NCBI GenBank assembly: GCA_963708605.1
Contig: CAVPTG010000015.1
Location: 51,218 to 115,217, forward strand
DNA length: 64,000 bases
Direction of reading: 5' to 3'
Origin: Candidatus Dormiibacterota bacterium
Lineage (GTDB): Bacteria > Chloroflexota > Dormibacteria > Aeolococcales > Aeolococcaceae
Part shown: piece after piece, positions 27,461 to 50,671 of the stretch
How positions within the stretch are numbered: position 1 is the stretch's first letter
Layout: the number at the start of each line of letters is the position of its first letter
The notes under the pieces: generated by a model
What the model saw: only the letters and a program-made list of their open reading frames with translations
Databases searched by the model: none
Told to the model about the DNA's origin: nothing
Made by a program: the position numbers and the translations under genes

Positions 27461-28444
27461 TCAGCGGGCGTCGCCCGCCATCTCGGGGAGGCGTTCGGGT
27501 TGGCGAATCCACCCTCGCGATGGGTACCGGGCGAGAACCTCGTCGATCTCGACCACCTGCTCCTCGCTGAGGCGCTTGCGCCACCGACCGGGCTGCTCAC
27601 GCGTGACGCGGATGTTGCTGAATCCCTCGCCGGGGCGATTCGATTCACTGAGAAAACGCTCGATCCCCTCGCTCCACGTCAGGCCAACCTGATCGCAGAC
27701 CTCTCGGATGCGTACTTGGGAATCGACGCACAGGTCCTCATGGGTGACGACCAGCCACTCGGGGTGATGGTCAACGTGATCGCTGAGGACCGTGGTCAGA
27801 AGGCCGACCCAGGCGGCGGTGCGCTGGGTCACGCTGGCGTTCGGCTCGGGCGCGCTGATGCCGAGAGGCTCCAGGTAGCGCTCCCGCACGGCGGGGCGAT
27901 CGAAGAGGTCGAACCCGTGCACTCCAAGCTCGATCCACGAGGAGATGGTGTTGAGCGGGTGCCGTTGGATCACCACCACCCTGGGGTCGTAGTGACTGAT
28001 GAGCCACTCGGCATAGAAGTGCGCATAGATCGACTTGACGATCACGTGCGGCGAGCGTCCCGGTAGCGATGACATCGCCTGCGCGGTCCGACGGAGGAGC
28101 GGGTCGCGTATCCCGCGTGGAAGGCGAAGTGCGGCACGCGCTGCGCTGCGGCCCAGGCCAGGCTTGTTGGGGATGCGATTCGTGAAGGAGAGATCCCAGA
28201 GCGCTCGAAACTGAGGAGCGGGATCATCGCGGTCGATGATCGGATACGGCCCGAAGCCCAGCCGGCTCACTCCGGTGCCCGTTGGGTCAGCATCCACGTT
28301 GTCCGGCTCCTTGACCATGCGTGTGCCCTCGGCGTGCCCAAGAGCGGTCGCCAGCCAGCGAGTGCCGGAGCGCGCGACTCCGAGGAGGAGCAGGCGGTCG
28401 GAGCGGCCCCGTACCGGTGGCGGGTTCTTGTCGGTGCTGGTCAC
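27461..28444 (-). CDS. Sulfotransferase-fold protein, paralogue 1 (subfamily A)
   Basis: 5'-PSB-like loop LLLLGVARSGTRWL and 3'-PB-like VVIQRHPLNTISSW. Also EPDNVD, WDLSF, VIVKS and THEDL. It is the last gene of the minus-strand operon. Confidence 0.75.
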   Translation of the reverse strand: MTSTDKNPPPVRGRSDRLLLLGVARSGTRWLATALGHAEGTRMVKEPDNVDADPTGTGVSRLGFGPYPIIDRDDPAPQFRALWDLSFTNRIPNKPGLGRSAARAALRLPRGIRDPLLRRTAQAMSSLPGRSPHVIVKSIYAHFYAEWLISHYDPRVVVIQRHPLNTISSWIELGVHGFDLFDRPAVRERYLEPLGISAPEPNASVTQRTAAWVGLLTTVLSDHVDHHPEWLVVTHEDLCVDSQVRIREVCDQVGLTWSEGIERFLSESNRPGEGFSNIRVTREQPGRWRKRLSEEQVVEIDEVLARYPSRGWIRQPERLPEMAGDAR

Positions 28445-33952: not shown

Positions 33953-34928
33953 TTACGACGCGGTAACAGGAGGGCGCACCCACCCACGCGTGGGAAACTG
34001 CCGCAGGACTTCTTCGATCTCGTTGACCTCGGGATCGGTGAGGCGCTGTCGCCACCTGGTCGGCTCCTCGGTGGCAATGCGCACCGGAGCCAGACCCTCG
34101 CCGTGACGATTGTTGTCATTGAGGAATCGAGCGACGTCGTCGGTCCACACCAGTCCGACCTGATCGCACACCGACCGGATGGTGGTCGCCGGGTCGTCGC
34201 ACAGATCCTCGTGCGTGACGAAGACCCATTCCGGGTGCTTGTCCACAGCCTCAGCGATGACGTGCGTCAGAAGTCCCACGTGCCACGCGATTCGCGCGAC
34301 ATCAGATGCGCGAGCATCCGGCGGCTCGATCCCGAGGGGCTCGATGTAGCGCGTTCGAATGATTGGGCGAGTTGCGAGATCGAAGAGCGGGATGCGGAGC
34401 TCCCTCCAACTCGACACCACGTTCAGGGGGTTGCGCTGCATGGCGATGACTTGCGGCTGGTAGCGGGTGACCAGCCACTCGAGGCTGAAGGTTGCGTAGA
34501 TCGTCTTGACGACAATGCATTCCGCCCGGCCGGGCATGCGGGCGGAGAGCCTCGCCGCTCGACGCACGAGCGGATCACGCATCGCGCGCGGCAGTCGCAG
34601 TGCGATCTGCGCGGCGGGCCGGAGCTTGCTCTGCCCGCGGTGCGCGAAGGGCAGCCGGCCCGAGAAAACAAGGTCCCAGAGCGGAAGGAACTGTCCGGCG
34701 TCCTGGTCGGTGTCGATCACCGGATATGGTCCGAATCCACGACGACCCGCGACGTCTTCCGCCTTTGGATCAGCGTCGACGTTGTCGGGCTCGTAATAGA
34801 AACGGACGCCACTGGCCTTGCCGAGCGCATGGCCGAGCCAGGAAGTGCCGGAGCGGGCAACGCCGATCAGCGCCAGCCGATCGCTTCTCGACCGAGGCGG
34901 TCGCGGCTTTCAGTTTTGGTTCAGACAT
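33953..34928 (-). CDS. Sulfotransferase-fold protein, paralogue 2 (subfamily A); no canonical in-frame start, apparent 1-nt frameshift at codon 7/8
   Basis: The track gives only 33953..34720 (GTG), which would delete the PAPS loop. The same frame continues upstream as KPRPPRSRSDRLALIGVARSGTSWLGHALG... to the TGA of the upstream GT4 gene (34912-34910). The ATG at 34928 (MSEPKLK) is in the +1 frame. Its length and sequence then align with paralogue 1 (MTSTDKN-PPPVRGRSDRLLLLGVARSGTRW). Confidence 0.7.
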
Positions 34929-40655: not shown

Positions 40656-41630
40656 ATGGAATCCAGTATGCGGATCCTTATCGCTGGCACGCACCGTTGC
40701 GGTTCGACCTGGGTGGCAAACGTGCTCGGTCAGTCACCCGGCATCCACAACGTATACGAACCTGACAGTCCGTACACGGACATTCTGGGCACGGTCGTAC
40801 GCAACCGCTTGGGTGAGTACCCGTCGCTCGAGCCGGGCCAGCGGTCGTCCTGGTATTCGATGGTATGGGATCTCGCCTTCGCCGGAGGCTGGCCGTGGAG
40901 CCGGTCGCCATCCGCTCGGAAGCTCGGCCGCGGACTCTCGAGGTCACCCGCAGCCCTTCGTGACCATGGTGTCGCGGTCCTGGCGCGAAGCGTCTCGGCG
41001 GCAGCGCCGCGACACGACCCGCACGTCATCGTCAAGTCCGCGAACTGCGGTTTCTCGGTCGAGTGGATCGAGCGTCGCTACCACCCGCGGGTGGTGATCC
41101 AGCGTCGCAACCCACTGAACGTCGTCTCGAGTTGGATGGCGCTCAACATCGAGCCGTATCGTTTCGACGATGCCGCGCTGCAACACCGGTGGCTTGACCC
41201 CCATGGATTGACTCGGCGAACGACATTCCCGTCACGGGTCGCTGAAGTCGCGTGGACGGTCGGGGTGCTCAGCGTTGCGCTCAAGGATGCGGCGGCTCGT
41301 CACCCAAACTGGATCGTGGTCTCACACGACGATCTGTCGCTCGATCCCTATGAAGGCTTCACATCGCTGTTCGCTCGTCTTGGTCTGCCGTGGACACCTC
41401 GGGTGAAGGCGTACCTCGAGGCCGCGGATGACCCGGCGTTCGTCGTCACCGGCGCGAACCCGCGCGGACACCCCAACGCGCAGACCGCAGCCGCGGATGG
41501 TACAAGCCGACGTGTTCAGCAGGCGACCCAGTATCGGCGCCGGCTGACCCCGACCCAGGTTGCAGAGGCGCGAGCGGTCCTGGGCGACCTGCCACTCGGT
41601 GAGTGGGGCGTCCCAAGCGGCGCAGCGTAA
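40656..41630 (+). CDS. Sulfotransferase-fold protein, paralogue 3 (subfamily B)
   Basis: MRILIAGTHRCGSTWVANVLG (5'-PSB-like) and VVIQRRNPLNVVSSW (3'-PB-like), plus YEPD, WDLAFAGGWPW, VIVKS and SHDDL. It is divergent from the GT operon. Confidence 0.75.
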   Translation: MESSMRILIAGTHRCGSTWVANVLGQSPGIHNVYEPDSPYTDILGTVVRNRLGEYPSLEPGQRSSWYSMVWDLAFAGGWPWSRSPSARKLGRGLSRSPAALRDHGVAVLARSVSAAAPRHDPHVIVKSANCGFSVEWIERRYHPRVVIQRRNPLNVVSSWMALNIEPYRFDDAALQHRWLDPHGLTRRTTFPSRVAEVAWTVGVLSVALKDAAARHPNWIVVSHDDLSLDPYEGFTSLFARLGLPWTPRVKAYLEAADDPAFVVTGANPRGHPNAQTAAADGTSRRVQQATQYRRRLTPTQVAEARAVLGDLPLGEWGVPSGAA

Positions 41631-42592: not shown

Positions 42593-43432
42593 CTACGGCG
42601 TTGGTGGGGTTGGCCGCCGACGAGCGCTTCGGGCGATCGCCGTAATCCCGACCAGGATGAGGAGGGCTCCGGTGATCGGCAGCGTCAGGCCTCCAGACCC
42701 GGTCCCCGGCGTCGTGATGCCCTGGACGCCACCGACTGGCGTCGGACTGGAGGTCGCCGGCGAAACAGACCCCGTCGGTGTCGGCAACGGCGTCGGCGTG
42801 GCGGTCGGGGTCGGAGTTGGGGTCGGCGGGGTGCACGCCGCCGAGCGGTTGCCGACCTGCCCGTCGACCCAACGATGCTCGGTACGGTACTGGCCGATCA
42901 TCATCGTCGCGAGCGGTTCCCCATAAACAAGATCGACCTGGAAGGCGCAGTCAGGGACATGAACGGTCAGTACCTGCGATGCGGCGGCCAGGCACGGATC
43001 GTTCGCCGAATCAGGATCTGCCCCCGGACTGAAGCTCGAGCAATCGAACAGGTTCTGCTGGGAACTGGTGCTGGAAGCGGTATTGCTGACGAGGGTGATC
43101 TCTGCGTCCGCGTTTCCAGGAGCCGTCGGTGCGAGGGTGAAATGCGCCGTTACGATATCGCCAGATGAAACGTTGCCGAACAGCGTGCAGACTGTTGTGG
43201 TCTGACCGGCGTGCTCAATGGAGAACCAGTAGCTCTCCAACACCTTGTTGGTGGAGTTCGTCGGATCGTTGAGGTTGGGCTGGTGCTCGCACGTGGGAGC
43301 GGTGGTCACTTGCTTGGGATGACGCGCTGCGGCTTGCACCGGCAACATGCCAACCGTGAATAGAAAAACGCCGGCTACCAGAATCGAGACCGCGCCGGCT
43401 CGACGCAGCAGTCCTCCCGCCCGGAGCACCAT
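42593..43432 (-). CDS. Secreted Cys-containing hypothetical protein with PT-rich linker and C-terminal cell-surface sorting-type signal (VQGITTPGTG + TM + RRR)
   Basis: Track ORF 42593..43465. The ATG at 43432 is preceded by GGAGG. It has a signal anchor, a PT linker TPPTPTPTPTATPTPLPTPTG, and a tripartite C-terminus GVQGITTPGTGSGGLTLPITGALLILVGITAIARSARRR. Confidence 0.6.
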   Translation of the reverse strand: MVLRAGGLLRRAGAVSILVAGVFLFTVGMLPVQAAARHPKQVTTAPTCEHQPNLNDPTNSTNKVLESYWFSIEHAGQTTTVCTLFGNVSSGDIVTAHFTLAPTAPGNADAEITLVSNTASSTSSQQNLFDCSSFSPGADPDSANDPCLAAASQVLTVHVPDCAFQVDLVYGEPLATMMIGQYRTEHRWVDGQVGNRSAACTPPTPTPTPTATPTPLPTPTGSVSPATSSPTPVGGVQGITTPGTGSGGLTLPITGALLILVGITAIARSARRRPTPPTP

Positions 43433-43543: not shown

Positions 43544-44356
43544 GTGAAGACTGTCGCAGACGAGACAACGCCCGAAGAGGCCACATGGACCGACCACGAG
43601 GTGGCCCGCCAGATCGCCGAAGAAGCCGGCCGTCTGCTGATCGACCTGCGTCGCTCCGTCCCTCTGTCAGCTGATGACCGCTGGCTGCGCGACCAAGGCG
43701 ACGCGCGCTCGCACAGGTTGATCATGGGCCGCCTCGCCCAGCTGCGACCCGATGACGCGATCCTTTCTGAGGAAGGCAAGGACGATCAGGAGCGCCTCCA
43801 GCATCGGCGCGTCTGGGTCGTCGATCCGCTGGATGGCACCCGGGAGTACGGAGAGCCTCCTCGCGACGACTGGGCTGTTCATGTCGCCCTGTGCATCGAT
43901 GGCATGCCGGTTGCGGGCTCGGTCGCTCTCCCGGCGCAGGGACGGCTTCTCACCACCGCGAACTCCTTCCCGGACGCTCCTCCGGACGGCGTCCCCCTGC
44001 GGATGGTGGCGAGCCGCACGCGCGCACCGGCAATCGTGACCGAGATCGCAGCCGCGCTCGGCGCTGAGCTCATCTACATGGGTTCGGCAGGAGCCAAGGC
44101 GATGACGGTGGTCTCCGGCGGGGCCGACGTATATCTGCATGCGGGTGGACAATACGAGTGGGATTCAGCCGCGCCGGTGGCTGTGGCGCTGGCCGCGGGA
44201 CTGCACTGCTCACGCATCGACGGATCGTCGCTCGTCTACAACCAACCGAATCCGTATTTGCCCGATCTCCTTATCTGCAAACGATCAATTGCCCGAGAGG
44301 TGCTGGCTTTGGTGGCCGCGCATACCGGGTCGGATACACTCGCGCAGGGTTCTTGA
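43544..44356 (+). CDS. cysQ: 3'(2'),5'-bisphosphate nucleotidase (PAP phosphatase), inositol-monophosphatase superfamily
   Basis: GTG start after GAGGAGA. IMPase motifs are ILSEEG and WVVDPLDGTREY, plus the C-terminal WDSAAPVAVALAAG. Size and motif spacing resemble actinobacterial CysQ. Confidence 0.8.
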   Translation: MKTVADETTPEEATWTDHEVARQIAEEAGRLLIDLRRSVPLSADDRWLRDQGDARSHRLIMGRLAQLRPDDAILSEEGKDDQERLQHRRVWVVDPLDGTREYGEPPRDDWAVHVALCIDGMPVAGSVALPAQGRLLTTANSFPDAPPDGVPLRMVASRTRAPAIVTEIAAALGAELIYMGSAGAKAMTVVSGGADVYLHAGGQYEWDSAAPVAVALAAGLHCSRIDGSSLVYNQPNPYLPDLLICKRSIAREVLALVAAHTGSDTLAQGS

Positions 44357-44499
44357 TTTGGCGCCGATGGTGTATGATCGGGGTCTCCGGGGCGCTGCCG
44401 CGGAGCGACGGGCGTGGGGTGTCGGTGACCTCCGGGGAGGCATCGGAATCGCGGTGAAACACAGATGACGTGGTCTATGGAAGGGAAGGACGCAGAGAG

Positions 44500-45588
44500 A
44501 TGAAAACGCAAACACTGCTACGCAGACTCCTTATCGCGACCGGCGTGGTCGTGGTGCTCTTTGCTATTGCGTTCGGACCCACGGTCATCGCCCATTTCAC
44601 AAAGAGACAGCTGCCGCCGGCACTGGCGACAGCGGCCGATCAAAGCTTCCCGGTGTTGGCGACCGCGTCCGGTGTGCTCCAACCTGGTCAGCTTGAGAAC
44701 GTCAACTTTCCGATCGCGGGTCAGGTCCAGTCCGTCGACGTACAGGTGGGGAGCAAGGTCACCGCTCGTCAGCTTCTCGCGGCGCTCAACGACAGCACTC
44801 AGCAAGCGGAGTTGAATGCAGCCAACTACGCGGTGAGCGCTGCCCAGGCGGCCATCGCGCAGGCGCAGGCGAGCGGATCGAGCGCACAGGTGTCTCAGGC
44901 GGAGGCGCAGCTGGCCCAGGCACAGGTTGAAGTGATACGAGCAAGGAATGATGATGCCGCCACTCGACTGCTCGCGCCCGAAACCGGGACCGTTCTCCAA
45001 GTGAACGGCGTCCCGGGCGACAGCGTGAGCGCCGGGAACTCGGGCCCCACCAACCCGTCGACCAATGGTGGGTCCGCGATAGCCAACGGTTTCATCGTCA
45101 TCGGCAACAATTCGAGCTTCGAGTTCTGGGCGCCATTCAGCCAGTCTGAGGATGTGTTCCTTGCGCCCAACCAGACCGCGACTGTGACCGTTGATGCGTT
45201 GCCAGGGCTTTCCCTTCCGGCCGTTGTCAAACTAATTGAACCGAGCGCGATTCAGGTGGGCGGTGTTCCCGAGTACTACGCCGACATCGCGCTCACCGCC
45301 ACGGATCCCAAGCTGAGAAGTGGTCAGACGGGATCCGTGAACGTCGTTATCGCCAAGGCGGTCAACGTCCTCTCGGTTCCATCGACAGCGTTGTTCACCG
45401 GGGCGAACGGCGCGCTGCAGGTCGACGTCTGGTCCGGAGGTCAGGCGTATCCGACGACGGTCACCATCGGCGACGTCGGGATCAAGTGGACGCAGATCCT
45501 CTCAGGGTTGGTCCCGGGCGAGCAGGTCGTCCTCTCGCCGGCGGGCCAGACCTTGCTGCCGACGGCCTCATCGCCTTCTCCATCGTGA
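44500..45588 (+). CDS. HlyD/MacA-type periplasmic adaptor (membrane fusion protein)
   Basis: Track ORF 44470..45588. The ATG at 44500 is preceded by GGAAGGA. It has an N-terminal TM anchor, a lipoyl-like segment (GQVQSVDVQVGSKVTARQLLA), a coiled coil (QQAELNAANYAVSAAQAAIAQAQ...) and the motif LLAPETGTVLQVNG. Confidence 0.8.
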   Translation: MKTQTLLRRLLIATGVVVVLFAIAFGPTVIAHFTKRQLPPALATAADQSFPVLATASGVLQPGQLENVNFPIAGQVQSVDVQVGSKVTARQLLAALNDSTQQAELNAANYAVSAAQAAIAQAQASGSSAQVSQAEAQLAQAQVEVIRARNDDAATRLLAPETGTVLQVNGVPGDSVSAGNSGPTNPSTNGGSAIANGFIVIGNNSSFEFWAPFSQSEDVFLAPNQTATVTVDALPGLSLPAVVKLIEPSAIQVGGVPEYYADIALTATDPKLRSGQTGSVNVVIAKAVNVLSVPSTALFTGANGALQVDVWSGGQAYPTTVTIGDVGIKWTQILSGLVPGEQVVLSPAGQTLLPTASSPSPS

Positions 45589-45619
45589 CCAACCAGGCAC
45601 CCTGAGACGCCACGCATAC

Positions 45620-46363
45620 ATGATTGAGCTTGCATCGGTCGGCAAGATATACGGCAGCGCTTCTGCTCCGGTCACCGCGCTGAGAGATGTGAATCTGATC
45701 ATCCAGCGGGGTGAGTTCGTCGCCATCGTTGGCCCGTCCGGCTCCGGAAAATCGACGTTGCTCAACCTCATCGGCTGCCTCGACCAGCCGTCATCGGGCC
45801 GCCTTCTCTTCCTCGGCGAGGATACGAGTTTGCTGAACGACACCAAGTTGTCTCGCATCCGCAATCGCTCGATCGGGTTTGTGTTCCAGATGTTCAACCT
45901 GGTACCGGAGCTGACGGTCTTCGAGAACATTGAACTGCCTCTCGTCTATGCCGGCATCACCCGACATCGTCGGGCGCTGACGACAAAGGCCCTTGAGCGA
46001 GTTGGCATGGCACATCGAGCCGGGCATCGAGCAAGCCTGCTCTCGGGCGGGGAGCAGCAGCGGGTTGCGATCGCAAGGGCGATCGTCAACGACCCAGCGC
46101 TCATCCTCGCGGACGAGCCCACCGGCAGCATCGACCCGGAGAGTGCGGAGGGGGTGATGCAGCTCCTCGGAGAGCTGCACGACCAAGCGCGAACCATTGT
46201 GCTCGTAACCCACAACATGTCTGTCGCAGCCTTGGCGCAGCGAGTGGTGCGGATCGAGTCCGGCACCATCAGCGAGATCAGCCACAGCATTTCGCCGGCT
46301 GTCGCCAATGGCACCGCGATGCCGAGCGCCCCGCTCGCGAGCTCGGTCCGCGCGGTCGAATGA
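45620..46363 (+). CDS. ABC transporter ATP-binding protein (MacB/LolD-type)
   Basis: Walker A GPSGSGKST, Q-loop, signature LSGGEQQRVAIARA, Walker B LILADEPTG. Confidence 0.92.
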   Translation: MIELASVGKIYGSASAPVTALRDVNLIIQRGEFVAIVGPSGSGKSTLLNLIGCLDQPSSGRLLFLGEDTSLLNDTKLSRIRNRSIGFVFQMFNLVPELTVFENIELPLVYAGITRHRRALTTKALERVGMAHRAGHRASLLSGGEQQRVAIARAIVNDPALILADEPTGSIDPESAEGVMQLLGELHDQARTIVLVTHNMSVAALAQRVVRIESGTISEISHSISPAVANGTAMPSAPLASSVRAVE

Positions 46364-47592
46364 AGTTCCGCGACGCGATCCTGGTTGCGTACCGCGGTCT
46401 CACCCGCCACTGGGTGCGGGCAACGCTCAACGTGCTTGGGATCGTCGCGGGCGTCGCATCGGTGATCATGCTCGTCTCGGTCGCGCACTCGGTGAGCAGC
46501 AGCGCGAAGTCGGCAGTGGAAGGCTTGGGGGCCAACCTCGTGGTGGTGTACCCATCCGGCACCCCGTCGTCAGGCGTTCAAATCGGCATCGGGACCACAT
46601 CAAGTTTGACCTCGAACGACGTGACGGCGCTCAGCAACATTGCGAACGTCCCCGATGCGGTGCAAGCCGTCCCGAGCGCAGGCATCAGCACAAACGTCAA
46701 CGCCGGTGCCCACACCTGGCAGACCGATGTGATCGGCACCACGCCGGGATTCGGGATCGCTCGCGGATACACCCTCAGCGATGGCGTGTCCTACGGCTAT
46801 TCCGCCGTCAAGGCCGCCCAGAACGTAGTCATCATCGGACAGACCGTCGCACGGCAACTGTTTCCCACCGTCGACGCGATCGGACAGCACGTTCTCATCA
46901 ACCAGCAGGATTTCACAGTCATCGGCGAGTACGCCGCACGGGGCTACTCCGGCCTGTACAACCAGGATGATCTTGTGGTCATGCCGATCACGACACTCTG
47001 GGACTTCGTGCTTCCAACCACGGTACCCAGAATCCAGCAGATCCTGGTACAGGCAACCAGCCCGAGCACGACGGCGAAGGCCGCGGCCGAAGTGACGAAT
47101 ACACTGCTGCATGGTCACGGCATCACCAATCCGGCGCTTGCCGACTTCCGCGTGGTGACGCAGCAGGACCTGGTCGCCGGCGCGGAGCGCGTGGGCACGG
47201 TCATGCAGTGGATGCTCGGCGCGGTGGCACTCATCGCGCTCCTCACCGGCGGTATCGGCATCATGAGCCTCATGCTGGCCACCGTCGGCGAGCGAGCCTA
47301 CGAGATCGGTGTACGTCGCGCTGTCGGCGCAAGCCGTGAGGACATCCTCGGCCAGTTCCTCATCGAAGCGCTTCTGCTGTCGATCCTTGGTGGCATCGCA
47401 GGGATCGCGCTCGGTTTCGGTGGGGCGACCTTCACCGGAGACGTATTCACGGATCTCCCGGCACCGGTGGTCACCGGCTTCGCGGTGCTCATCGCCGCCG
47501 GCGTGGCGCTGGCGATTGGAGTTGGGGCGGGCCTCTATCCGGCCGTGCGCGCCTCTCTGCTGCAGCCCGTTGAAGCCGTGCACCGACAATAA
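46360..47592 (+). CDS. ABC transporter permease (MacB_PCD + FtsX domain)
   Basis: ATGA overlap with the ATPase gene. The topology is one N-terminal TM helix, a ~230-aa periplasmic domain and three C-terminal TM helices, with the FtsX-type motif ERAYEIGVRRAVGASREDI. Confidence 0.9.
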   Translation: MKFRDAILVAYRGLTRHWVRATLNVLGIVAGVASVIMLVSVAHSVSSSAKSAVEGLGANLVVVYPSGTPSSGVQIGIGTTSSLTSNDVTALSNIANVPDAVQAVPSAGISTNVNAGAHTWQTDVIGTTPGFGIARGYTLSDGVSYGYSAVKAAQNVVIIGQTVARQLFPTVDAIGQHVLINQQDFTVIGEYAARGYSGLYNQDDLVVMPITTLWDFVLPTTVPRIQQILVQATSPSTTAKAAAEVTNTLLHGHGITNPALADFRVVTQQDLVAGAERVGTVMQWMLGAVALIALLTGGIGIMSLMLATVGERAYEIGVRRAVGASREDILGQFLIEALLLSILGGIAGIALGFGGATFTGDVFTDLPAPVVTGFAVLIAAGVALAIGVGAGLYPAVRASLLQPVEAVHRQ

Positions 47593-47603: not shown

Positions 47604-47927
47604 ATGATCAAGATTCCCACGCTTTCGCGCTCGCCTGCCACGGCTGCGACCGGGTCAGCGGTGCTCATCGTCGCGGCGCTGGCTGGGGTCGTTCTCGCGG
47701 CCGGCGCTGATTCGGGGTCTTCCGCCACGGCGGGCCAATATGTCTCGGCGCCGGCGGCCAACGTTGCCCCGCTCGTGCTCCCGAAGCCTTGTGTCGTGAC
47801 CAAACATCGCCGGTCATGCAGCACGGCTGCGTCGGCGTCGCATCGCGCGAAGCAGGTCAAGAAGCAGCCCGTCCAGAGCGCAGCGTTACCGGCCCAGACT
47901 GTCGCTCCCACCCCGGTCGGCCCGTGA
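47604..47927 (+). CDS. Small signal-anchored hypothetical protein (107 aa)
   Basis: It starts 9 nt after the permease stop and has a TM helix AVLIVAALAGVVLAAG. Its TGA overlaps the GTG of the next gene (GTGA). Confidence 0.5.
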   Translation: MIKIPTLSRSPATAATGSAVLIVAALAGVVLAAGADSGSSATAGQYVSAPAANVAPLVLPKPCVVTKHRRSCSTAASASHRAKQVKKQPVQSAALPAQTVAPTPVGP

Positions 47928-48880
47928 GGGTATTGGTCGCCGGGGCAGCGCGCTGTGGGAGCACATGGGCCGCGAACGTTCTCGGGCATGCCGTCGGGTC
48001 GCGAACCGTGTACGAGCCGGACGGGCACAACTCCGACGTTCTCGGGGCTGTCGCTGCGGCGCGACTGGGCGAGTACCCTGTGCTGGAGGCGGCAGACTCG
48101 AGCTATTGGTATCGGCTGATCTGGGATCTCGCGTTCGCCGGCGGCTGGCCGTGGGACAAGGTCGAGTCCGCGCGAGCGGCCGGCCGAGGGCTGGTGCGGA
48201 TACCTCCGGTGCTGCGCGACTACCTCGTCGCCGGACTCGCCGAGGGGACCCGAACTGTTCGGCGGCGACCAGACAACGTCGTCGTGAAATCGGTCAACTC
48301 GATCTTCTCGCTGGACTGGATCGTCGAGCGGTATTCGCCGACTGTGGTGATCCTTCGGCGCAATCCCCTCAACATCGTGTCCAGCTGGCTTGTGCTTGGA
48401 ATGTGGAGCGACCACACGATTGGCAACCATCCGATGGTGCGGGAACGGTATCTGACATCGCTCGGCCTCCAATCGCCCAACGGCACGTCGTCGCCTGTGA
48501 GGATTGCCGCGTGGAATGTCGGGCTGCTTACCCGCGCCCTCAAGGATGCGGCCGAGCGTCATCCCTCATGGATTGTCGCATCACACGATGACCTCTGCAT
48601 CGATCCGATGCGGAAGTTTCAGGCGTTGACTACCCGCATCGGCCTGCAGTGGTCAGACGCCATGGAGCGATATCTCACGGAGTCCGAGGACCCGGCCTTC
48701 ACAGTCCACCACGGGACAGTGAAGGTGCATCCCAACGCGGTGACGGCCACCACGTCAGGCAGCAGGCGTGAGCAGCAAGGTACCCAGTTCACGCGACGCC
48801 TCACTCCTCAGCAGACAGCCGAGGCCCTGGCTGTCCTCGAGAGCTTCGACCTCGGCGACTGGGGACCTCGGACCGTCTGA
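47924..48880 (+). CDS. Sulfotransferase-fold protein, paralogue 4 (subfamily B)
   Basis: Track ORF 47789..48880. The GTG at 47924 gives VRVLVAGAARCGSTWAANVLG, co-linear with paralogue 3. Also VVILRRNPLNIVSSW, YEPD, WDLAFAGGWPW, VVVKS and SHDDL. Confidence 0.75.
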   Translation: MRVLVAGAARCGSTWAANVLGHAVGSRTVYEPDGHNSDVLGAVAAARLGEYPVLEAADSSYWYRLIWDLAFAGGWPWDKVESARAAGRGLVRIPPVLRDYLVAGLAEGTRTVRRRPDNVVVKSVNSIFSLDWIVERYSPTVVILRRNPLNIVSSWLVLGMWSDHTIGNHPMVRERYLTSLGLQSPNGTSSPVRIAAWNVGLLTRALKDAAERHPSWIVASHDDLCIDPMRKFQALTTRIGLQWSDAMERYLTESEDPAFTVHHGTVKVHPNAVTATTSGSRREQQGTQFTRRLTPQQTAEALAVLESFDLGDWGPRTV

Positions 48881-49051: not shown

Positions 49052-50671
49052 CTAGCCCAGGCGGCGCGCCCTCCGGATCTCGGCCGATGCGATGCCTGTC
49101 ACCCCGAGACCACCGAGCAGGAGCCCCAGGGCAGGAGCCGCCAGGAGCCCGACACCGGTGCCTGGCGTCGTGATGCCTTGCACGCCACTGGTCACAGAAG
49201 TGATGTGCACGGGCTCATCTCCGCACTTGTCGCTGGAGCCTGCGTTCCTGACATCGCCGTTGTAGACAGCGATCCACTGGTACGTCCCAGCGGTTTTCGT
49301 GCCACTGAAGTTGGCTGACCTAGCGGTTCCGTCCGCCAGCATCGCGACGGTGCTGGTGAAGATCGCTGGGCCGGCGCACGACCCATCGCTCGGGCTGTAC
49401 AGCGAGAATGTGACCGTGCCGCTGGGGTGGACGCCTTCGGAAACCCGCACGGTGTCCCAGACCACGGTTCCGGTGACGCCACCCGCCGACGGTGTCGACT
49501 TGAGCGAGGTGGAGTCCTTGCCGATGGTGACGGGCTCCTTACCGCAGACGCTGAGTGCCTCGGTGTTGTTCGCATCGCCACCATAGTCGACCACCCACTG
49601 GTAGACGCCGGGCTCCGTGGTGATGTAGCCAGGTGCCGGAACGCTGGCCTTGCCATCAACGAGCGCGAATGGTCCCGCCATGAAGATCCAGCCATGGACC
49701 GTCCCACCGTCAGTCGTCAGCTTCATCTGGCAGGTTGCATTGCCCGGTCCGAATAGATAGAAGCGCATGTTCCCCGTCGGATCACTCCCGATCACCGTTG
49801 CCGAGTCGGTGAGTGCTGTGCCGACCGGGGCACCGCGAGCGCTCGAAGGCACACTGGTGATGCTCGTCGGCATCTTGCCGATGGTGACGGGTTCCTTGCC
49901 GCACACACCCAGCGCCTCGGTGTTGTTGACATCCCCGCCGTAGTCGGCAACCCATTGATAGACGCCGGCTTGGGTGGCAGTGAAGCCGGGCGCCGGGACG
50001 CTGGCTTTGCCGTTCACGAGCGCGATCGGGCCGGCCATGAAGATCCAGCCGTGTGGTTCATTCTGCGAGGTCTGGTTGAAGTTGCACGTCGAGTTGTCCG
50101 GCCCGAACAGGTAGAACCGAATGTTGCCGGTCGCATTGAAGCCGTCGACTGTCGCCGAGTCCATCAGCTTGCTGCCGACATGCGAGCCGTGAGATGTCGA
50201 GGGCGTCGTATCGATGCTCGTCGGCAGCTTGTTGACGGTCACCGGCTCGTCGCCACACGTGGTCGGCCCCGATTCGATCGCACCACCGCTGGTGATCACG
50301 ATCTCGGCGGTCCATTCGAAGGTCCCCGTCGACTGGGCGACATACGAGGCCGAGGTCACCGTGCTGTCGGTCAGCGATGCGGTTGTGACCGGCTCGTTGT
50401 CGGTGAAGACCGGGCTTGCGCCCGGAACGCCGCAGGTCCCAGGCGCCCAAAGGAAGAAGGTCACGTGCCGGGAGCTGTCCGCATAGACGACCGCCTGGTC
50501 GGCTAGGGCAGTCTTGTCGACCACCCCAACGGACGGTTGTGGCGTTGTGCCAATGATGTAGTGCGCCGACGCGGACATCGTGGTGGCGATGCCGGCGACC
50601 GCCACCCCGAGTACAGCGCCGCCGCCGATGGCCAAGGTGCGAGCTTTTCTCGCCCAGCCGTGTTGCCGCAT
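49052..50671 (-). CDS. Secreted Ig-like domain repeat protein (4 Big_3_5-like modules) with C-terminal VQGITTPGTG sorting-type signal
   Basis: Signal peptide MRQHGWARKARTLAIGGGAVLGVAVAGIA. Modules end Y.W.A.YGGD.NN.E....CG.EPV.I.K. The C-terminus is SGVQGITTPGTGVGLLAAPALGLLLGGLGVTGIASAEIRRARRLG. Confidence 0.8.
   Translation of the reverse strand: MRQHGWARKARTLAIGGGAVLGVAVAGIATTMSASAHYIIGTTPQPSVGVVDKTALADQAVVYADSSRHVTFFLWAPGTCGVPGASPVFTDNEPVTTASLTDSTVTSASYVAQSTGTFEWTAEIVITSGGAIESGPTTCGDEPVTVNKLPTSIDTTPSTSHGSHVGSKLMDSATVDGFNATGNIRFYLFGPDNSTCNFNQTSQNEPHGWIFMAGPIALVNGKASVPAPGFTATQAGVYQWVADYGGDVNNTEALGVCGKEPVTIGKMPTSITSVPSSARGAPVGTALTDSATVIGSDPTGNMRFYLFGPGNATCQMKLTTDGGTVHGWIFMAGPFALVDGKASVPAPGYITTEPGVYQWVVDYGGDANNTEALSVCGKEPVTIGKDSTSLKSTPSAGGVTGTVVWDTVRVSEGVHPSGTVTFSLYSPSDGSCAGPAIFTSTVAMLADGTARSANFSGTKTAGTYQWIAVYNGDVRNAGSSDKCGDEPVHITSVTSGVQGITTPGTGVGLLAAPALGLLLGGLGVTGIASAEIRRARRLG

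Follow-up and report, generated by a model that had tools for sequence, protein, structure and literature searches.

The subject of this analysis is a sequence element shared by two genes in a 64,000-nucleotide stretch of a Dormibacterota genome, which we call the window (C15:51218-115217 of a 3.02 Mb assembly, 67% G+C and 80% complete). Both genes lie on the minus strand, and their otherwise unrelated products of 279 and 539 residues end in the peptide GVQGITTPGTG, a hydrophobic segment and an Arg-rich tail. An earlier interpretation made from the DNA letters (the sequence-only reading) had picked out this common ending and likened it to a protein-sorting signal. The ending is as it described, at the coordinates it gave: all 11 residues are identical, and the V of VQGIT starts at 42727 in the gene for the 279-residue protein and at 49183 in the gene for the 539-residue protein. 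The conservation that it reported at the DNA level also holds, with the two tails matching at 30 of 34 bases and all four differences falling in synonymous third positions. When the whole proteins were compared by BLASTP, the tail alone aligned (39 residues, E=1e-3). Judged from the sequences, the same 11-mer at the same place in two unrelated proteins is far beyond chance.

The 279-residue protein is encoded by an open reading frame (ORF) at 42593..43432 on the minus strand, counted from the second ATG (290 residues from the first), and comprises a signal peptide, a Cys-rich immunoglobulin (Ig)-like beta-sandwich, a Pro/Thr linker and the putative sorting tail. Its Sec signal peptide (43325..43432, approximately residues 1-36) is predicted by eye and from a helix at residues 9-28 of an AlphaFold model, with a probable cleavage site at MVLRAGGLLRRAGAVSILVAGVFLFTVGMLPVQA/AA. 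The candidate sorting motif GGVQGITTPGTG (42698..42733, residues 234-245), defined by its sequence and its conservation in homologues, joins a VQGIT box to the TPGTG pentapeptide; PVGGVQGITTPGTGSGG is the stretch around it, containing T241, P242, T244 and G245. Sequence, hydropathy and the model (helix 254-271) then mark a hydrophobic membrane segment and the Arg-rich tail RSARRRPTPPTP (42596..42697), so that the C-terminal end reads ...PTPVGGVQGITTPGTG-SGGLTLPITGALLILVGITAIA-RSARRRPTPPTP*. In the model, residues 60-195 form a beta-sandwich with a predicted local distance difference test (pLDDT) score of 85-94, and residues 207-252 are disordered. As the box falls in this disordered stretch past the linker, it lies outside any folded domain. 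A fold search of the PDB with the model gave nothing significant, returning generic Ig-like sandwiches alone (best E=0.096). The sandwich core (42848-43255, minus strand) carries five invariant cysteines (C48, C82, C131, C147 and C162).

This protein has 54 homologues, without a Pfam domain, in which the motif is placed after a Pro/Thr linker, and P242, T244 and G245 are invariant among 26 of them, down to 40% identity. In the 279-residue protein, TPGTG is followed by an LPITG. We rejected it as a real sortase site: its position is occupied in homologues by LPLTG, LPLVG, LPFAG, VPFTG and others, and because it varies so freely it is not a functional site. LPITG is also missing from the 539-residue protein.

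The latter is an Ig-repeat (Big_3_5-like) surface protein encoded at 49052..50671 on the minus strand, identified from its ORF, a weak Big_3_5 match and its homologues. A signal peptide is predicted by eye (50564..50671, approximately residues 1-36, ending ...AGIATTMSASA/HY at the likely cleavage site); by inspection, each protein opens with basic residues, continues with a hydrophobic run and then reaches an AxA-like site (VQA/AA and SASA/HY). The motif SGVQGITTPGTG (49154..49189) is recognized by its sequence and is kept across the family. It is followed by a Gly/Leu-rich hydrophobic segment and basic tail (VGLLAAPALGLLLGGLGVTGIASAEIRRARRLG, 49055..49153, assigned from sequence and hydropathy), giving the C-terminal end ...VTSGVQGITTPGTG-VGLLAAPALGLLLGGLGVTGIA-SAEIRRARRLG*. 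Averaged hydropathy is 1.9-2.3 in the two tails before RSARRR or RRARR at the extreme C-terminus. Among the 147 homologues of the Ig-repeat protein, the motif ends nearly every complete member, down to ~35% identity, in variants that include GVQGITTSVPGTG, GVQGITDVPTPSTG, VQGIGSAGVPATG, GVLGITTPPTG and VQALTTPSTG. Apart from their tails, the two window proteins look like ordinary surface proteins.

The genes around them give the region the look of a cell-envelope sulfation and export locus. It holds four sulfotransferase paralogues (31-52% identity; PF13469) at 27509-28444 (-), 33971-34885 (-), 40656-41630 (+) and 47789-48880 (+), as well as a CysQ-like 3'-phosphoadenosine 5'-phosphate phosphatase and an HlyD/ABC/MacB-type exporter at 43544-44356 and 44470-47592. 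Each motif gene is convergent to one sulfotransferase gene, an arrangement lost in a distant genome (L002). Given that loss and the four paralogues in the locus, we treat the sulfotransferase neighbours as locus context only and rejected their adjacency as a functional link.

Recurrence of the tail on unrelated carriers

If the tail is a signal in its own right, then it should recur on other proteins, and the sequence-only reading had proposed a genome-wide search for tails of this type. In this genome, four further proteins end in an xPxTG tail: a 1,496-residue Big_3_5/He_PIG/NIDO protein (VPGTG), a 619-residue protein with six Big_3_5 domains (VPETG), an ice-binding-like protein (VPSTG) and a small protein (HPATG). 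Treating the group as a class within a large phylum, we built a tail profile (A1) from 33 tails and ran it over a class sample of 151 genomes. Related genomes carry 1-11 tails each, on ORFs of ~90 to 2,500 residues; in 34 extracted tails the carriers are unrelated and the tail mostly stands behind a Pro/Thr linker. Overall, the unrelated carriers in related genomes were put at about 40-1,900 residues.

A global search with the tail profile covered 1.84 billion representative proteins and gave 186 matches at E<=1e-3, of which the best 150 were listed. About 105 of those 150 are true C-terminal tails; another ~45 matched in multiple stretches and were discarded as translated repeat DNA. In P0180-P0311, with 4-11 stretches each, the units ISTHAPRTGSD, FNPRSPHGER and FQPTLPARGAT matched the profile, and these entries look like interspersed repeat DNA translated and called as genes in public data. 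Few of the global matches carry an organism label, and the only label is Dormibacteraeota. As the motif recurs in more than 100 other tails, it is a real motif.

The consensus is G-[GS]-V-[QL]-[GA]-[IVA]-[ST]-T, 0-4 residues, [T>V>L]-P-x-T-G, a transmembrane (TM) segment and a basic tail. P, T and G are fixed in the 105 unique tails. The residue before P is T in 87, V in 10 and L in 4, in line with the earlier description of the pentapeptide as an xPxTG that deviates at its first position. The x position is mostly G (62) or S (23), less often N (6) or A (5), and the residue after TG is A in 51 tails and S in 21. Between the five-residue box and Pro there is one residue in 67 tails, three in 20 and four in 6, and in 7/105 tails PxTG stands without a recognizable box.

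Among eleven independent copies of the exact peptide GVQGITTPGTG, synonymous differences affect on average 4.7 of the 11 codons; in their flanks, ~8 of 11 codons differ non-synonymously. The copies were chosen by peptide identity, so the synonymous figure alone is informative, and this pattern indicates that selection is on the peptide, not on the DNA. Across 185,579 species genomes, the pattern [SG]GVQGITTP gave 13 confirmed loci, 12 of them in metagenome-assembled genomes (MAGs) of Dormibacterota. The motif-bearing contig of L118 (DATLRX010000067.1) is binned as Candidatus Acidiferrales, a placement that could reflect misbinning or lateral transfer. The matching genome records and homologues are MAGs of palsa, peat and Danish soils, and the sequence is present in DNA metagenome runs from soil, peat and permafrost. 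The RNA runs searched for the two genes included none containing them.

The tail also grades into canonical signals within one family. Distant homologues of the 279-residue protein have SGVLGASVGLPNTG, STPDTG or LPSTG at the same position, in tails such as SGVLGASVGLPNTGAG, TPGLPSTGAG, SVSTPDTGAG and TTLPNTGST, and the Joint Genome Institute (JGI) name of one of them, P0155 (SGVLGASVGLPNTGAG), is LPXTG-motif cell wall-anchored protein. We scanned isolated tails against NCBIfam, where the LPXTG model TIGR01167 has a cut-off of 15.9 bits: the LPNTG tail of P0155 scored 21.6 bits, and the VPSTG and VPETG tails of the present genome 18.0 and 14.8. No Pfam or NCBIfam model detects the two window tails. 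Run over the class genomes, the canonical LPXTG model gave a few weak matches, with zero in this genome.

The sortase and its distribution

The sequence-only reading had recognized no sortase gene in the window and had allowed that the genome might lack a matching transpeptidase. The genome does encode one sortase, on another contig (C13:137052-137762), a 237-residue protein with an N-terminal membrane helix and a PF04203 match at C13:137361-137699 (69.2 bits). Among the NCBIfam class models it scores best with class E (56.7 bits), ahead of D (38.8), C (30.4) and F (19.9). The class E score is far under the cut-off of that model (NF033747, 160 bits), so we describe the enzyme as a divergent, class-E-like sortase of tentative class and specificity. 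Of the solved structures, those nearest to it are class E: 5GO5/5GO6 (E=6e-8), 5UUS and 5CUW. Across 22 orthologues His142, Cys200, Arg209 and Arg213 are near-invariant, with His142/Cys200/Arg209 as the catalytic residues. A Cys84/Cys166 pair outside the active site is likewise near-invariant and possibly forms an extracytoplasmic disulfide, and in the orthologues a conserved stretch of 60 residues joins the membrane helix to the catalytic core. An AlphaFold model of the enzyme, made with 13 orthologues, had a mean pLDDT of 47, too poor for use.

Phylogenetic profiling of a co-occurring sortase had been suggested as a check. Since a sortase of some kind is found in 146/151 class genomes, a presence/absence profile of any sortase is uninformative, and we searched for orthologues of the C13 sortase instead. 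These occur in 34/35 genomes of its own family (f1, 47-85% identity), in 13/14 of a second family in the same order (f54, 45-51%) and in 8/11 of a third (f24, 33-38%); families f15 and f20 show generic similarity alone (~30%). Strong tail matches in the class sample are limited to f1, f54 and f24. In a phylum-wide sample of 251 genomes, all 14 with a tail match at E<=1e-4 belong to these three families, and zero genomes of other classes have the tail, though 179/251 have sortases. Orthologues and tails thus share families. However, both track phylogeny, so most of this shared distribution is not independent evidence.

More independent are a joint absence, a single-contig genome and gene linkage. 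G004, a reduced genome belonging to f1 (1.45 Mb, 98.8% complete), has neither sortase nor tails, and the Ig-carrier family is missing from it too. G295, assembled as a single contig, has one sortase, no exosortase and eight tail matches, four of which read GGVQGITTPGTG, GGVQGITTTTPDTG, AASVNTPETG and AATTVPSTG. In G267 (C116), a sortase homologue has as its immediate same-strand neighbour a gene whose product ends GGVEAAQLPFTG-TM-RR; in G346 (C137), a sortase paralogue directly follows a gene ending AVSAVTTPSTG; and in G280 (C3), the sortase orthologue converges with a gene ending GAVSAATTPSTG at a distance of 1.9 kb.

Interpretation of the tail and its rivals

Our data suggest that the shared tail is probably a sortase (LPXTG-type) cell-wall sorting signal, in a form confined to some of the Dormibacteria. 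This reading draws on the one sortase in the genome, the shared distribution of enzyme and tail, their joint absence, the gene adjacency in relatives and the LPNTG found at the same position. In such a scheme, the proteins would be exported by Sec via their N-terminal signal peptides, and the C-terminal hydrophobic segment and Arg-rich tail would keep the precursor in the membrane. The C13 sortase would then cut between T and G of [T/V/L]-P-x-T-G and pass the protein to an amine of a peptidoglycan precursor, the presumed acceptor. The G-V-Q-G-I-T-T box, a companion element typical of the lineage, most likely either extends recognition on the non-primed side or has a separate stalk function. 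Cleavage and wall attachment of the two window proteins are steps that we infer from these sequence features and their distribution.

Several observations weigh against a sortase signal. The window tails, whether in the whole protein or isolated, match no curated sorting-signal model, TIGR01167 included, and position 1 is T, neither L nor A. A sortase is near-universal in the class, and sortase and tail both follow phylogeny. The class E score of the C13 enzyme (56.7 of the 160 bits required) is low, and its gene is without linkage to any substrate gene in this genome. One genome, G370 (89% complete), has three tails and no detected sortase. The spacing from box to PxTG varies (1, 3 or 4 residues), and a box-like motif occurs in a family without PxTG. 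Finally, the hydrophobic segment of the Ig-repeat family is weak, Gly-rich and Glu-containing in many members. The Glu is conserved after TPGTG in a large subfamily of homologues of the 539-residue protein (P0023-P0061; L016, L017 and L020; GLGIELLLGGLALGLTSELVRERRRA), which is unusual for the stop-transfer helix of a sortase substrate.

Some of these points would fit a plain C-terminal membrane anchor, in which the proteins stay in the membrane for good and GVQGITTPGTG, never cut, is a motif of the juxtamembrane stalk, perhaps one that is glycosylated or touches the wall. Sortase cleavage is, after all, inferred; the window tails fail every curated sortase-signal model; a related box occurs ~55 residues before the TM segment in 41/102 prenyltransferase-repeat proteins that have no PxTG; and G370 has tails without a detected sortase. 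Against such an anchor, unrelated carriers all keep P, T and G immediately ahead of the hydrophobic segment, canonical LPNTG stands at the homologous position, and a sortase with an intact triad is present. Moreover, sortase, tails and carrier family are all missing together from G004, and in two relatives a tail-bearing gene lies next to a sortase gene. We therefore regard a plain anchor as unlikely.

We give slightly less credence to a two-part signal, in which a second enzyme or factor (a protease, a glycosyl- or sulfotransferase, or a wall-binding partner) reads the box, and the sortase acts on PxTG alone or nowhere. The box, G-V-[QL]-[GA]-[IVA]-[ST]-T, shows roughly the same degree of conservation as PxTG and is separated from Pro by 1-4 residues. 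It can be duplicated, as in P0069, P0092, P0161/P0162, L071 and L077 (for example SSVQAATTTPTPTSTPTSVVQAATTPSTG and GGVQGITTPTGSVQGISDVPTPSTG), and similar motifs (GSVLGITATP and ASVQGVTATP) are those found in the prenyltransferase-repeat surface proteins without PxTG. Both window genes also lie in a glycan/sulfation locus. However, we found no enzyme whose distribution specifically tracks the box, the sulfotransferase adjacency is not kept in L002, and some tails have PxTG with no recognizable box (the 7/105 noted above). Conservation of the box is no more than moderate in the PxTG-less family, where Val alone reaches 70% and the other positions fall short of it.

As its spacing to PxTG is variable and a box-like motif occurs without PxTG, the box may lie outside sortase recognition, and it could be either a sortase exosite or a separate stalk element. 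It is conceivable, if doubtful, that the box is a separate short linear motif of the stalk with its own reader, common to sortase substrates and to PxTG-less anchored proteins; candidates for such a reader are an exosite on the sortase, an enzyme that glycosylates or sulfates the box, a protease involved in shedding, and a polymer of the wall. If true, the Dormibacteria tail would be a two-element sorting signal, of a kind undescribed for any sortase system.

One of the PxTG-less proteins, L082 (C11:17583-20093), has two prenyltransferase/squalene-cyclase-like repeats and a Pro/Thr linker with GSVLGITATP. Its C-terminal end, which lacks PxTG, consists of a conserved A-S-G-F-P motif followed by a TM segment and RRRRGA. 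The G-F-P element, kept ahead of the helix in 66 homologues, may itself serve as a further anchor signal.

Returning to the sortase reading, the layout of the tail had originally been assigned to sortase, exosortase and rhombosortase substrates alike, and the sortase part of that assignment is the one favoured by the C13 enzyme, its distribution and its gene linkage. An exosortase/archaeosortase or rhombosortase signal would have the same tripartite layout, and the genome holds one exosortase-family gene (C1:42223-43908, TIGR04178 at 41-46 bits) and one rhomboid. Yet TIGR04178 is found in G000 and G316 and is absent from G295, G368 and G310 of the same genus, each with 6-9 tails; the exosortase gene adjoins a different tail type (PVPEVP, TM segment, RRR); the lone rhomboid scores 18.7 bits on the rhombosortase model (TIGR03902) against a cut-off of 84; and the motif is PxTG, neither PEP nor Gly-Gly. 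On the absence within the genus, the rhomboid score and the motif type, we consider both enzymes very improbable readers of the tail and rejected them. The exosortase-family protein itself has 560 residues and an extra C-terminal domain, and matched no named exosortase subtype. Directly before its gene, C1:41463-42203 encodes a secreted protein ending ...GAGPPVPEVP, TM segment, RRR. The pair is possibly a second, different C-terminal sorting system, which occurs in only 2/5 genomes of the genus.

Least credible of all is a local duplication or gene conversion that left the two neighbouring genes with a motif of no function of its own: the two are indeed separated by 6 kb, and the sulfotransferase genes to which they are convergent are paralogues of each other (52% identity). 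However, the match is limited to 34 nucleotides with four synonymous differences and unrelated flanks, and the motif, far from being confined to these two proteins as the sequence-only reading had allowed, recurs in dozens of genomes on a wide range of unrelated carriers, its synonymous variation being saturated. On these grounds we dismissed a duplication.

Comparison with known sorting systems

We found no mention in the papers searched of the motif, nor of sortases in Dormibacterota. If the tail is a sortase signal, it would give a predicted route of surface protein attachment for an uncultured phylum-level lineage, and a searchable signature of its wall-anchored surface proteome that current annotation models miss. 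It would argue for a sortase-competent, monoderm-like envelope in Dormibacterota and would extend sortase specificity to [T/V]PxTG. Should the sortase also read the unusually conserved box upstream, its recognition of substrates would be extended in a way that is rare, with possible use in sortase-based protein ligation. A dedicated hidden Markov model of the tail would improve the annotation of peat, permafrost and soil metagenomes.

The closest parallel is the LPXTG system of monoderm bacteria, by which Gram-positive species fasten proteins to their cell wall (TIGR01167/PF00746; sortases PF04203, MEROPS C60). As there, the carriers here have a predicted signal peptide, and their xPxTG directly precedes a hydrophobic segment with a basic tail behind it; unrelated surface proteins can carry the signal; the genome encodes a sortase with a His-Cys-Arg triad; and LPNTG itself stands at the homologous position in homologues. 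The Dormibacteria tails differ in that position 1 is Thr (83%) or Val (10%), not Leu, and x is mostly Gly or Ser. They also differ in that the pentapeptide is preceded by the near-invariant G-V-[QL]-[GA]-[IVA]-[ST]-T box, and in that the window tails are missed by TIGR01167 and every other curated model.

Position 1 need not be Leu in other systems. Clostridioides difficile SrtB, the single sortase of its genome, reportedly has (S/P)PXTG substrates. It resembles the present case in its non-Leu position 1, its retained P-x-T-G and its status as a lone sortase; unlike the C13 enzyme, it is a class B sortase, from another phylum. We know of no conserved upstream box described for its substrates.

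Class E sortases (Streptomyces SrtE1/SrtE2, 5CUW and 5GO5; Corynebacterium diphtheriae SrtF, 5UUS) are likewise single housekeeping-type enzymes, N-terminally membrane-anchored, from high-G+C organisms and with a deviant pentapeptide, and they are the best matches of the C13 sortase in both the PDB and NCBIfam. The likeness is loose, with 56.7 against 160 bits and PDB E-values no better than 6e-8. Their substrates carry LAXTG, with Ala at position 2, whereas here Pro holds that position in 105/105 tails and position 1 varies instead. Set beside these systems, the tail is most likely a lineage-restricted variant of the sortase sorting signal, belonging to part of the class Dormibacteria.

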